64,000 bases of DNA from Ruminococcus sp. CAG:254 (GCA_000433635.1 HF997977.1:129882-193881), one strand, 5' to 3'. Shown: positions 26,237-28,981, numbered from the stretch's first letter. Numbers and translations: made by a program. Notes: generated from the sequence alone by a model not told the origin.

Positions 26237-28981
26237 TTATCGATGACAATCAATGCTCTTGACGTGTGTATCAAAGCAAACACTGTCACAGACGCATTTC
26301 TTTGTCTTATCGTATACTGTAATATTAATACCACGACGGCTGACAGACCTGCCAATGCCATTGAAAGAAATTGCAGTTGCATTGCCGACCTTGAGCGGTT
26401 TACTGGTGGCAACAACAGCAACACCATCTTCCGTTGTAGCTTTTACTGAGATGACTTTCTGATAAGCAGCATCTTCAGCCAGCAGCTTTCCACCATCAAT
26501 GATGGCAGCATAGCCGTACCAATGCTTTTTTGTCAAGTTGACAGTAACACCAATCCGCTGCATATCGGCATATAATGCATCTGTAAAGCAGAGTCCCGGC
26601 GTATCCTTGACCGCAATGGCAATGATATAATTTTCAATGTTGGCTTGTAATGCCTTGAAGTACTTCGAGAAATCGGAAATCGCTGTCAGAGAGAATCCAG
26701 CAAATTCCACCAAATGTGCAATTTTGCGGTTTGCAGTGGCATTTGCAATCATCAACTTTGAAACCCGTTCGGACAGTAAATCAATCCGTCTTGTCAGAAG
26801 GTCATAAGTAGAGAGTGGCTTTTTCGTTGGGTCTGCCAGAGCATCCCGCAACCAAGTCAGACAGCGATGCCGTTCCTGCTCCAGAATTTCATAGACTGCA
26901 TCATAATCAACCGGTGTGGTCAGCAGTGCTTCTTTCTGCTTCAGTTCAGTCAAGTTAGAAATCAAGCGGTCTTTCAAGCCGAGCAGACCCAGAATGGATT
27001 CAAACCGACTCTTGCCTCGCTTTTCGTTGACGATGGCAACGAAGTTTTTCTTCATCAGAATTGCAAAACAAATGCCATGGAACGAGTCTGCAATAAAGAA
27101 ATCAGAATGAATGATGTTGGCAAGTCGGTCTTCGATGAGTCCGCCGAACTGTACCGGCAAATCAAAGTCATTCAAATCTTTTTGTTGATATGCCATTTCG
27201 GTATAAACCGTGGTGCTCAGCTTCTTTTTCTTCGCAGCATAGCGGAGAATGTCTGCCTTTTCCTTTGTTGGGTCGAGAATATATGCACCAAGGTAATTTT
27301 CTTCCATTGGGTGTGTAGACTGCTTTGCCAGTTCTCGGTAATATTCTGGTTTGCAGAGGAAAACCGGGTCTAACACCCACTGGGCATCTATGTCGAATTC
27401 CTTTTTGCAGATGTCAACACCGCTCTGTTCCCGAACGGAGAAAGCATCAAATCGCTTCATAAAATGTGCCATTTCTGCACGGGTTTCTTCCGGACTCCAG
27501 ATATAATCATGACCGAACGAAGCTGCATAGGCGATTTTCTTTTTGTTGTCCTGAACCCAGTCCAATGTACACCATCTACCGAAGTTATTATACAAACCAT
27601 CGTTGAACAGCTGGTCAGAGCCAACCACAAACATCTTGCAGAATTGATTCAGTTCTTTCATTGCTTGCTTATTCGGATAAATTTTTGCGGTATCAAAGGC
27701 AGGGTAGGGAGAAGTTCCATAAATTTTTGTCAGTGCCGGCTTATGGGCACAGTTTCCAGGGCGTTCGATCATCAGAACCGAATAACCCAGATCGCATAAG
27801 ACTTTATATAGAGCAAAATAGGTCAGAGCACCCCCGAAGTTGCCAACGGTATGAATGCCAACCAACCCAATATCATGTTGATTATCCATTACCATTTTTA
27901 CAATTTCCTCCATAGATTTGGTACGCAGTAATGGGAAGAAAACCGATCTTCCCGGATGTGGTGGATAAGCTGCCTTTAGTCGGTTTGGAATAGTTGCAAG
28001 GTTGACGTGCATTTGTTTGGAATCGGTTTGCGGCTGAAACCAAGTAAATAGCTGTCTGCCCTTTTCGTTGTTGAGAAAGACCATCGAAGTGCCCTTGCCA
28101 TCGGTCTGGCTGGGGTCGATTTTTTGAATGCCCCAGAAATCGCCCATGGTCAGATCACCCGTACGAGGGAACGTGCAGAATTTGCAGTTATGACAGCAGG
28201 GACGCAGTGCAATGTTGTGTTGGAAAATCCGTTCATAGGGGTCATTTCGGCGGTTTGCACCGTGGTAGGAAGTCCCATCGGAAAAATCCACATCAATGTA
28301 AGTTGCAATCCAGCCGTGTGATTTATCCCGAAACCGAACATCGACCGCTTGTTTTCCGGGGAATGTTTCTTCTAAGTATCGCTGTAAAATTGCCTGTGAT
28401 GGAACACCATGACAGAGCAGGTCAATCGTATAGAGCAAATCGTTGTATTTGTTGCCGGCGATGTTTTTCATGGCAGCTACCTGACAGGGACATCCGGTAA
28501 ATAAGACTAGTTTTCCAGCCTTTAGACATTTAAGTGCATCCCGATAAACCAGTTCCGGGTCACTCTGCACATATTTTGAACCCCGCATGGGAGCAAGCTG
28601 CTTTTCATTTTTGGCGATGGAGAGCGAAAGATGCAGGTTTTTGTCAAACGCTGCTCCAACGACAACGCCTTTCCGTGCAAAGACTTCCTCGGCAGCCAGA
28701 GAGAAAACACCACCAGAGGAGCTATTTGCTCGAATGTCGTCTGCACCTCGAACCGCATACAAATCCGGTTTCGCGATGTTGCTGCTCTCCCAGTGCAGAA
28801 CCGGACAGATTTGCTCACACTTCTTGCAGCCGATACATTGTGCTGCCTGTACAACCGGATGCTGAAAGCCCTCCGCATCCGGTGCGAAAAAGATGGCATC
28901 TTTTGGGCAGGCATTGGTACAGCCACCGCAGCCGGTACAGGTTTTTCCCGGCAGTTGCGGCAGAGATGTTGTTGCAATCAT
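26237..28981 (-). CDS. fusion protein: 2x[4Fe-4S] ferredoxin + F420-hydrogenase-beta-like (FrhB/FdhB) flavoprotein domain, then polysaccharide pyruvyl transferase domain, then about 210-aa C-terminal domain of unknown function
   Basis: CTGCGGCTNACP and CIGCKKCEQICP cluster motifs. FrhB-like SSSGGVFSLAAE...GCPCQVAAM. Central PS_pyruv_trans-like region IGLVGIHTVGNFGGALTYFALYKVL...SFGHDYIW...DSFHGICFAIL. Start 28981 with a GGAGG RBS, 3 nt after the upstream stop. Confidence 0.8.
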   Translation of the reverse strand: MIATTSLPQLPGKTCTGCGGCTNACPKDAIFFAPDAEGFQHPVVQAAQCIGCKKCEQICPVLHWESSNIAKPDLYAVRGADDIRANSSSGGVFSLAAEEVFARKGVVVGAAFDKNLHLSLSIAKNEKQLAPMRGSKYVQSDPELVYRDALKCLKAGKLVLFTGCPCQVAAMKNIAGNKYNDLLYTIDLLCHGVPSQAILQRYLEETFPGKQAVDVRFRDKSHGWIATYIDVDFSDGTSYHGANRRNDPYERIFQHNIALRPCCHNCKFCTFPRTGDLTMGDFWGIQKIDPSQTDGKGTSMVFLNNEKGRQLFTWFQPQTDSKQMHVNLATIPNRLKAAYPPHPGRSVFFPLLRTKSMEEIVKMVMDNQHDIGLVGIHTVGNFGGALTYFALYKVLCDLGYSVLMIERPGNCAHKPALTKIYGTSPYPAFDTAKIYPNKQAMKELNQFCKMFVVGSDQLFNDGLYNNFGRWCTLDWVQDNKKKIAYAASFGHDYIWSPEETRAEMAHFMKRFDAFSVREQSGVDICKKEFDIDAQWVLDPVFLCKPEYYRELAKQSTHPMEENYLGAYILDPTKEKADILRYAAKKKKLSTTVYTEMAYQQKDLNDFDLPVQFGGLIEDRLANIIHSDFFIADSFHGICFAILMKKNFVAIVNEKRGKSRFESILGLLGLKDRLISNLTELKQKEALLTTPVDYDAVYEILEQERHRCLTWLRDALADPTKKPLSTYDLLTRRIDLLSERVSKLMIANATANRKIAHLVEFAGFSLTAISDFSKYFKALQANIENYIIAIAVKDTPGLCFTDALYADMQRIGVTVNLTKKHWYGYAAIIDGGKLLAEDAAYQKVISVKATTEDGVAVVATSKPLKVGNATAISFNGIGRSVSRRGINITVYDKTKKCVCDSVCFDTHVKSIDCHR

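Follow-up and report, generated by a model that had tools for sequence, protein, structure and literature searches.

Permuted Fusions of FrhB-like and Pyruvyl-Transferase-Family Domains in a Galactofuranose Polymer Locus of Ruminococcus sp. CAG:254 as Candidate Lactyl-Ether Synthases

A 64-kb window of the genome of Ruminococcus sp. CAG:254 was analyzed, and all coordinates below are positions in this window, i.e., in the whole stretch of DNA under analysis. The window contains two large open reading frames (ORFs), ORF A (26237..28981, minus strand, 914 aa) and ORF B (34476..37223, plus strand, 915 aa), in which a ferredoxin domain, an FrhB-like flavoprotein domain and a pyruvyl-transferase-family domain (PvT, PF04230) are joined in one polypeptide. 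The architecture of these proteins, their conserved residues and the company kept by their relatives suggest that both are probably cytoplasmic single-polypeptide lactyl-ether (1-carboxyethyl) synthases, which would decorate a galactofuranose (Galf) wall polysaccharide before its export by an ATP-binding cassette (ABC) transporter. By homology, they can be regarded as fused, ferredoxin-bearing variants of a gene pair that has already been tied genetically to lactyl sugars in Enterobacteria.

Domain Architecture of ORF A and ORF B

The ORF A product consists of a ferredoxin domain, an FrhB-like domain, a PvT domain, a helical linker and a beta domain. In ORF B, the PvT domain comes first and is followed by a disordered linker, the ferredoxin and FrhB-like domains, a second linker and a beta-sandwich. 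The start of ORF B was placed at the TTG codon at 34476, since it lies 7 nt downstream of a GGAGGA ribosome-binding site, and this start was preferred over that of a longer ORF from 34461.

Pfam analysis of ORF A revealed matches to Fer4_7 (residues 14–61, E 2.7e-9), with two CxxCxxCxxxCP motifs, FrhB_FdhB_N (residues 76–140, 22.0 bits, exactly at the cut-off of 22), FrhB_FdhB_C (residues 158–313, 71.9 bits, cut-off 23.3) and PS_pyruv_trans (residues 381–652, 92.4 bits, cut-off 25.3). In the ORF B product, PS_pyruv_trans (residues 17–293, 97.9 bits, cut-off 25.3), Fer4 (residues 407–454), FrhB_N (residues 469–537, 29.9 bits, cut-off 22) and FrhB_C (residues 554–713, 78.7 bits, cut-off 23.3) were found. 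The borderline FrhB_FdhB_N match of ORF A is backed by the structure comparison described below. On the DNA, the 2x[4Fe-4S] ferredoxin domain of ORF A (residues 13–61) occupies 28799..28945, the FrhB/FdhB-like domain, with predicted flavin and [4Fe-4S] cofactors (residues 72–345), 27947..28768, and the PS_pyruv_trans domain (residues 365–720) 26822..27889, all on the minus strand. The corresponding parts of ORF B are located on the plus strand at 34476..35555 (PS_pyruv_trans domain, residues 1–360) and 35670..36755 (2x[4Fe-4S] ferredoxin and FrhB-like domain, residues 399–760).

Pairwise alignment was used to compare the two proteins. Residues 365–720 of ORF A, containing the transferase domain, aligned with residues 1–359 of ORF B (38% identity, E 2e-76), and residues 3–364 of ORF A, containing the FrhB part, aligned with residues 396–758 of ORF B (33% identity, E 3e-72). 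These matches, like those to Pfam, are far beyond chance, and the domain order is permuted between ORF A (FrhB-PvT) and ORF B (PvT-FrhB). A preliminary description of this DNA had claimed a three-part architecture, an opposite domain order in the two proteins and a different, unrelated C-terminal domain in each. The scan for PF04422, PF04432 and PF04230, with domain boundaries matching in both ORFs, and the cross-alignment bear out the first two claims, and the third was confirmed as well, since pairwise comparison of the two C-termini gave no alignment.

The C-terminal beta-rich domain of ORF A (residues 782–914; 26240..26638, minus strand) gave an ILEI/PANDER-like match of 26.5 bits, half a bit under the cut-off of 27, and the C-terminal beta-sandwich of ORF B (residues 775–915; 36798..37220, plus strand) gave a very weak CBM_4_9 match (E 0.046). 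Each of these domains is conserved inside its own family, and the A-type domain occurs only next to a GlfT2-like galactofuranosyltransferase gene (9/9 loci). It is plausible from these sequence features that the C-terminal domains recognize the acceptor. In the model of ORF A, the beta-rich domain is preceded by a region (residues 721–781; 26639..26821, minus strand) in which DSSP assigned a long helix of 37 residues (725–761) and a short helix; the region is possibly a coiled-coil spacer. No transmembrane segments were predicted in ORF A or ORF B.

Conserved Motifs, Predicted Folds and Family Assignment

Invariance of residues was judged in an alignment of each family (40 homologues for ORF A). 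In ORF A, the ferredoxin cysteines C15, 18, 21, 25, 49, 52, 55 and 59 are invariant, as are C166, C190, C263 and C266 of the FrhB part, which also carries the motifs SSSGG (87–91) and SKYxQS (135–140). The invariant cysteines of ORF B are 408, 411, 414, 418, 442, 445, 448, 452, 561, 584, 656 and 659; the last four are the cluster cysteines of the FrhB part, and SSSGG is located at 482–486. The 12 invariant cysteines of each protein are the putative ligands of three predicted [4Fe-4S] clusters (eight in the ferredoxin and four in the FrhB part). Both family alignments also show full conservation of two flavin-site motifs (SSSGG, SKYxQS) and of four transferase motifs (GSDQ, SVRE, DSFHG, RGxSR); the ORF A transferase domain contains an LDP motif as well. 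Judging from this conservation, both modules of ORF A and ORF B look functional.

Modeling with AlphaFold2, based on 40–41 homologues, gave a mean predicted local distance difference test score (pLDDT) of 91.6 and a predicted template modeling score (pTM) of 0.80 for ORF A. For ORF B, the values were 88.5 and 0.54, with disordered linkers at 376–394 and 766–774. Searches of PDB sequences were uninformative: with the whole protein, matches were limited to ferredoxins, the single match of the FrhB part by itself, to the plant chlorophyll reductase HCAR, was marginal, and a profile search with the transferase domain gave nothing useful. For this reason, the models were compared with known structures. 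The FrhB half resembled F420-reducing subunits (8rja, 8riu), sulfite reductase Fsr (7np8), FrhB and HCAR (5dqr), the last being among the top structural matches. The transferase half resembled glycosyltransferase-B (GT-B) folds, including that of the yeast pyruvyltransferase Pvg1p.

Thus, assignment to the FrhB/FdhB family (PF04422 and PF04432) is supported by the N and C models, the fold, the flavin-site motif and the four cluster cysteines, and assignment to PF04230 by the full-length model, the Pvg1p-like GT-B fold and the conserved residues; the two CxxCxxCxxxCP motifs identify a 2x[4Fe-4S] ferredoxin domain. The possibility of a true F420 enzyme was rejected, as the NCBIfam FpoF and FrhB equivalog models scored 46–48 bits against cut-offs of 444–475 and the context is non-methanogenic. 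Therefore, ORF A and ORF B appear to be FrhB-fold enzymes and not subunits of an F420 dehydrogenase or hydrogenase. Clostridia are not known to produce F420.

Distribution and Coupling of the Two Modules

More than 120 full-length homologues of ORF A at ≥40% identity and more than 60 of ORF B were found. The fusion is not rare and is already present in databases under generic names, namely 'Coenzyme F420 hydrogenase/dehydrogenase beta subunit C-terminal domain' or 'polysaccharide pyruvyl transferase family protein'. At least 545 relatives were confirmed in a species-level scan with one genome per species. Among the matches listed, the closest species representative was an Oscillospiraceae metagenome-assembled genome (MAG), with 81% identity for ORF A. 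The carriers belong to Clostridia, Bacteroidota (Bacteroides, Alloprevotella), gut Alphaproteobacteria, Melainabacteria (Gastranaerophilales) and Brachyspira, and also to Elusimicrobia, Verrucomicrobiota (Opitutales) and Succinimonas, and include a Thermoplasmata archaeon.

Locus organization was counted in the 79 best loci of the scan, with search patterns drawn from both domains, so that the counts are biased towards coupling. The modules were fused in 60/79 loci (55 FrhB-PvT and 5 PvT-FrhB) and split in 13/79 (10 adjacent and 3 within 2.5 kb). In the remaining 6/79, phmmer detected FrhB alone, and in three of these six a divergent PF04230 gene was located two genes upstream, beyond a Wzx flippase. 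Both the fused and the split forms, which the preliminary description had proposed to look for in other genomes, thus occur in many phyla, and its argument that the two modules form a functional couple was upheld by the 60 fused loci, the 13 with neighbouring genes and the three whose divergent PF04230 gene lies two genes off. That the modules keep recurring in either order, and also as neighbours, strongly indicates that they act as a functional pair. The coupling is not universal in the subfamily, as indicated by two Phascolarctobacterium MAG loci (L071, L076) in which a PF04230 gene was not detected nearby and no polysaccharide context was seen. The FrhB-like genes of these loci belong to the same subfamily and are located near genes for a LysR regulator, a UvrA-like ABC protein and a thioredoxin/thioredoxin-reductase fusion.

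Several higher-order fusions were also observed: a tandem (Fer4-FrhB-PvT)x2 protein of 1526 aa, a PvT-Fer4-FrhB-PvT protein with an ILEI-like end (1348 aa), a PvT-FrhB-hexapeptide acetyltransferase-short-chain dehydrogenase/reductase (SDR) epimerase protein (1444 aa) and an FrhB-PvT protein with a family 8 glycosyltransferase (GT8; 1168 aa, P0213). In addition, proteins of ~920–1310 aa (P0188, P0190, P0192–P0194, P0236) combine PF04230 with thiamine pyrophosphate (TPP)-enzyme domains, TPP_enzyme_N/C being assigned by Pfam on P0188. Their PF04230 domains are 56–83% identical to the ORF B transferase and fall in the same clade.

Comparison with Lactyl-Sugar Loci of Enterobacteria

The O-antigen of E. 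coli O124 carries a D-GlcLA (lactyl-glucose) side-chain residue, and O164 has the same structure with plain glucose (Glc), due to a frameshift in wfeP, a gene described as responsible for uridine diphosphate (UDP)-D-GlcpLA synthesis and tied to lactyl-glucose synthesis since 2008 (PMC7685785). The O124/O164 cluster was located via divergent glf matches in complete E. coli genomes; seven other E. coli glf loci (O96, O87 and unnamed types) were set aside as irrelevant. The cluster contains wzx, a gene for a protein with FrhB_N and FrhB_C domains (460 aa), a gene for a PF04230 protein (378 aa), glycosyltransferase genes, wzy and glf. It is carried by six E. coli genomes, three with both genes intact. 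In the other three, the copy is 1 nt shorter, the PF04230 gene is annotated as two coding sequences and the FrhB-like protein is identical. The shorter, split copy matches the published O164 frameshift, which identifies wfeP as the PF04230 gene; its loss therefore removes a lactyl ether and not a ketal. The statement in the preliminary description that FrhB-like genes were known only as unexplained neighbours of pyruvyl-transferase genes was incomplete: they are such neighbours, and the adjacent PvT homologue wfeP had already been assigned to lactyl-glucose (PMC7685785).

The O124 PvT protein and the ORF A transferase domain share 30% identity (E 9e-39). The O124 FrhB-like protein aligned with residues 10–301 of ORF A (~300 residues, 21% identity, E 5e-7), with SSSGG and the four cluster cysteines in register. 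The loci of O124 and Shigella dysenteriae type 3 thus resemble ORF A and ORF B in having the same two Pfam modules side by side, and the O124 locus also shares glf and a Galf residue. In ORF A and ORF B, the modules are physically coupled and both are homologous to the O124 pair. The O124 system differs in that the genes are separate, the pathway is of the Wzx/Wzy type, the lactyl group is on a side-chain glucose, and neither a clear 2x[4Fe-4S] ferredoxin domain nor a C-terminal beta domain is present.

A second comparison is provided by Klebsiella capsules. The survey of 79 Klebsiella K loci recorded 35 pyruvyl-transferase genes, one 'coenzyme F420 hydrogenase' gene and two 'nitroreductase' genes, and K8, K22, K37 and K66 were the only K types with a transferase gene yet no capsule pyruvate (PMC4616057). 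The 'coenzyme F420 hydrogenase' gene is found in K66 and the 'nitroreductase' genes in K22 and K37, each beside the type-specific pyruvyl transferase gene (PMC4616057 supplement). A reductase gene is therefore present in 3/4 of the non-ketal PvT types vs. 0/27 of the ketal types (Fisher p = 8.9e-4). In the title of a structural paper, K22 is called 'another glycan containing 4-O-[(S)-1-carboxyethyl]-D-glucuronic acid', a wording by which K37 has this residue too; the two differ only by an acetyl group. Like ORF A and ORF B, the K22/K37 (WclZ and nitroreductase) and K66 (WcqF and 'coenzyme F420 hydrogenase') loci combine a PF04230-type gene with a flavin reductase gene, and the polymer has no ketal; in Klebsiella, the genes are split, and the K22/K37 reductase has a nitroreductase fold. 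The O124/O164 pair, with the transferase frameshifted and the lactyl group lost, and the K22/K37 pattern favour a lactyl ether over a pyruvate ketal, as the preliminary description had predicted.

Two modification modules were found side by side on the IS-rich E. coli plasmid pBDSF8-3_3 (NZ_JBTWTU010000003.1, 24.8 kb; positions 5987–21506). One contains genes for a (truncated) nitroreductase, a PvT protein and a family 2 glycosyltransferase (GT2), and the other contains genes for a flippase, an FrhB-like protein and a PvT protein. Two other small E. coli plasmids match the PvT gene of this plasmid. This arrangement fits a scheme in which nitroreductases and FrhB-like proteins can replace one another as reductases in a single chemistry. 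At the gnd site of E. coli Ec-U7 (NZ_CM192139.1, positions 1532994–1548048), a capsule-like locus contains a short pyruvyl-transferase-family gene (292 aa), glf, a gene for a DUF4422 protein and wcaJ, and no reductase gene.

Proposed Reaction and Alternative Explanations

A pyruvate ketal has no reducible group, and a reductase locked to a phosphoenolpyruvate (PEP)-dependent transferase therefore points to an enolpyruvyl ether stage. We suggest that the PF04230 domain would transfer enolpyruvyl from PEP onto one hydroxyl of a sugar in the galactofuranan or in its lipid-linked precursor, rather than onto a nucleotide sugar, by addition–elimination with loss of phosphate, as in ketal formers but halting at the enol ether. 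The fused FrhB-like domain would then reduce the C=C bond of the enol ether via flavin adenine dinucleotide (FAD) to give a lactyl ether. The electrons for this step would be donated by reduced ferredoxin or flavodoxin and would reach FAD via three [4Fe-4S] clusters, first the two in the ferredoxin domain and then the FrhB-type cluster. Each enzyme has a GlfT2-like polymerase of its own as partner and a distinct C-terminal beta domain, and ORF A and ORF B probably differ in the position, stereochemistry or polymer of the modification.

There are precedents for the individual steps. In the MurA/MurB pathway, enolpyruvyl is transferred from PEP to UDP-GlcNAc and is then reduced by a flavin-dependent enzyme to a D-lactyl ether. 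This is the same two-step chemistry, with no homology between the enzymes: no Pfam match to an EPSP-synthase-fold or MurB-type FAD_binding_4 domain was found in ORF A or ORF B, so that MurA/MurB are analogues only, and the proteins described here would use a GT-B-like transferase and an Fe-S flavoprotein that is probably fed by ferredoxin and not by NADPH. In the FrhB family, HCAR is a non-F420, ferredoxin-dependent reductase and BciB reduces a vinyl C=C bond with ferredoxin; both differ from ORF A and ORF B in having a tetrapyrrole substrate and no fused transferase. A lactyl group also arises in F420 biosynthesis, where the enolpyruvyl group of dehydro-F420-0 is reduced by the nitroreductase-fold domain of FbiB. 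FbiA/FbiB thus offer an example of a PEP-derived enolpyruvyl group being reduced to lactyl and a precedent for the nitroreductase partner in K22/K37 and in the E. coli plasmid, but they belong to a small-molecule cofactor pathway with a phosphodiester instead of an ether and an unrelated transferase. A literature search for enzymology of the FrhB-like/PvT pair or of lactyl-ether biosynthesis found none described; the matches were limited to the Klebsiella survey and the E. coli review.

Several points weigh against the proposed lactyl-ether synthesis on the polymer. PF04230 modules are also fused to hexapeptide acetyltransferase, SDR epimerase, GT8 and TPP-enzyme domains, and with such varied partners fusion alone is a weaker sign of sequential chemistry. 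The preliminary description had proposed modeling of inter-domain contacts: the domain folds were indeed predicted with confidence, but with its flexible linkers and low pTM the ORF B model predicts no fixed inter-domain channel. The O124 FrhB-like protein, with its ~21% identity to the ORF A domain, has no clear second ferredoxin cluster motif. The enterobacterial genetics bears on the transferase gene and not on the need for the FrhB-like gene. The K66 capsule may carry a lactyl ether, which the Klebsiella papers searched did not confirm. Finally, lactylation is placed at the level of the UDP-sugar, and not of the polymer, in the E. coli review (PMC7685785).

The last point leads to the first alternative, in which the same lactyl sugar is made by another route: the pair would act on UDP-Gal(f) or UDP-Glc, or the FrhB-like domain would reduce PEP to 2-phospholactate for the transferase, and a glycosyltransferase would then add the lactyl sugar. 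The role of wfeP in UDP-D-GlcpLA synthesis (PMC7685785) speaks for such a route, as does the existence of the FrhB-PvT-GT8 fusion (P0213). It is also generally known that MurA/MurB work on a UDP-sugar. Nevertheless, the locus has no dedicated extra glycosyltransferase besides the two GlfT2-like polymerases, PF04230 enzymes studied so far are known to use lipid-linked or completed glycans, and the lectin-like C-terminal domains together with the strict GlfT2-like co-occurrence suggest polymer recognition. As for phospholactate, its SN2 displacement would be chemically harder than addition–elimination on PEP. We consider this route rather unlikely.

According to the second alternative, ORF A and ORF B are classical ketal-forming transferases, and the FrhB-like domain serves in redox sensing or gating by the ferredoxin state or modifies the same polymer in some other, unrelated redox reaction. 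It is known that the PF04230 members studied (WcaK, Pvg1p) make ketals, WcaK being so annotated, and modules of this family occur in fusions with many kinds of unrelated modifying domain. A pyruvate ketal on Galf exists as well, namely the 5,6-Pyr-Galf of Klebsiella K12 (PMC4616057). However, this explanation leaves the reductase with no reducible group in the product. The homologous split pair is found in loci with lactyl-ether, non-ketal polysaccharides, a lactyl group disappears when PF04230 is lost in the O164-type genomes, none of the 27 ketal-type Klebsiella loci has a reductase gene, and the pairing is kept while the reductase type is swapped between FrhB-like and nitroreductase. Moreover, the ketal formers WcaK, Pvg1p and CsaB differ from ORF A and ORF B in their cyclic ketal product and, as judged from the wca cluster, in having no reductase partner: no reductase neighbour of WcaK was found in the colanic acid cluster, and WcaK is 18% identical to the ORF A transferase domain. 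A ketal product is therefore quite unlikely.

It is similarly improbable that the carboxyethyl or pyruvyl group is a chain-terminating cap, present only at the non-reducing end of the galactofuranan, setting its length and licensing ABC export with the ORF A helix as a WbdD-type spacer: the Wzm/Wzt-type ABC organization, the 190-aa C-terminal extension of the ATPase, the 37-residue helix between the ORF A catalytic and beta domains and the known terminal pyruvylation of wall polymers in Bacillus and Paenibacillus would agree with it, but the ABC ATPase is mostly short in related loci (~250–280 aa, no extra domain), the ORF B model has no such helix and the lactyl sugar of O124 and K22/K37 is found in every repeat unit. 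A cap is a biological role and is compatible with lactyl chemistry.

Possible Significance

Besides muramic acid, lactic-acid ethers occur in many bacterial polysaccharides, e.g., in E. coli, Shigella and Klebsiella antigens, and also in Butyrivibrio exopolysaccharides and cyanobacterial sheaths. As a broader and tentative proposal, which we place slightly below the point of calling it probable, the FrhB-like/PF04230 module may be a general ferredoxin-driven, non-MurA/MurB route to lactyl ethers on lipid-linked polymers; lactyl-ether glycans would then be widespread, largely unseen anionic surface polymers of gut and rumen anaerobes, and the two permuted enzymes would install distinct lactyl groups on two galactofuranans.

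If lactyl-ether synthesis by these proteins is true, it would be a second, unrelated solution to the MurA/MurB chemistry, and ORF A and ORF B would be convenient one-polypeptide enzymes for its biochemical proof. An acidic galactofuranan would be expected in the walls of Oscillospiraceae and Lachnospiraceae and would be relevant to host recognition and surface-protein anchoring; lactyl ethers in the wall polymers of Clostridia could substitute for teichoic-acid-like charge. A PF04230 gene together with an FrhB-like or nitroreductase gene would serve as a genomic marker that distinguishes lactyl-ether from ketal loci, and the label 'coenzyme F420 hydrogenase' would have to be corrected in thousands of non-methanogen genomes. 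The chief merits are this testable rule for interpreting polysaccharide loci and an enzyme suited to its proof. The fusion itself is common, and the chemistry that we infer is well supported.

Genomic Context of ORF A and ORF B

The two genes belong to two divergent operons. The minus-strand operon consists of a GlfT2-like gene, ORF A, glf and genes for an ABC-2 permease and an ABC ATPase. The first of these (paralogue a, 28985..30826) is located immediately upstream of ORF A. The glf gene (25104..26210), encoding UDP-galactopyranose mutase (GLF Pfam, 282.7 bits), would supply UDP-Galf, and the permease (23923–24690) and the ATPase (22618–23910, 430 aa) form an exporter of the Wzm/Wzt-type pathway. 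The plus-strand operon consists of genes for a standalone PS_pyruv_trans protein (31372..32529, 385 aa; ATG after an AGGAG site; 58.3 bits, cut-off 25.3) and a second GlfT2-like galactofuranosyltransferase (paralogue b, 32545..34455), followed immediately by ORF B as its third gene. From its gene content, the locus is assigned to an ABC-transporter-dependent pathway for a galactofuranose polymer. The whole layout of ABC, GlfT2, PvT/FrhB, PvT and glf genes is shared by Blautia hominis, Eubacterium segne and two Lachnospiraceae MAGs. Among cultured bacteria, the locus is carried by Blautia hominis KB1, Eubacterium segne and Agathobaculum hominis.

An AT-rich divergent control region of 545 bp (30827..31371) lies between the operons. 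A sigma-70-like site with a 12/12 match (TTGACA-17-TATAAT, 31024 to 30996, minus strand) faces the ORF A operon, and a site with a 10/12 match and an extended -10 element is located at 31200–31228 on the plus strand. An ORF at 30839–31318 (minus strand, 159 aa) that overlaps this promoter region is unlikely to be a gene: it matched no Pfam family, and none of the 79 related loci contained a homologue. A scan of the whole window with Rfam at gathering thresholds gave no RNA families.

The ~190-aa C-terminal extension of the ABC ATPase (22618–23199, minus strand) had no Pfam match even at E 10, and in most related loci the ATPase is short (250–280 aa). The extension could be a Wzt-like glycan-end-binding domain. 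The standalone PF04230 protein (31372–32529) has DNYYG for DSFHG, AVKE for SVRE and GSDV for GSDQ and has lost RGxSR. The residues lost are present in nearly all other family members examined, and the equivalent standalone PF04230 genes in the Blautia, Eubacterium and Lachnospiraceae loci retain them. Judging from these substitutions, this protein may be a pseudo-enzyme or an enzyme of different activity.

Genes for a class III fructose-1,6-bisphosphatase (FBPase) and UppP are also found nearby in this Firmicute genome. The next gene after ORF B, in the opposite orientation (37295–38575, minus strand), encodes a 426-aa protein with a type I dockerin (residues 180–233) and no other Pfam match, which hints at a cellulosome-type Oscillospiraceae host.

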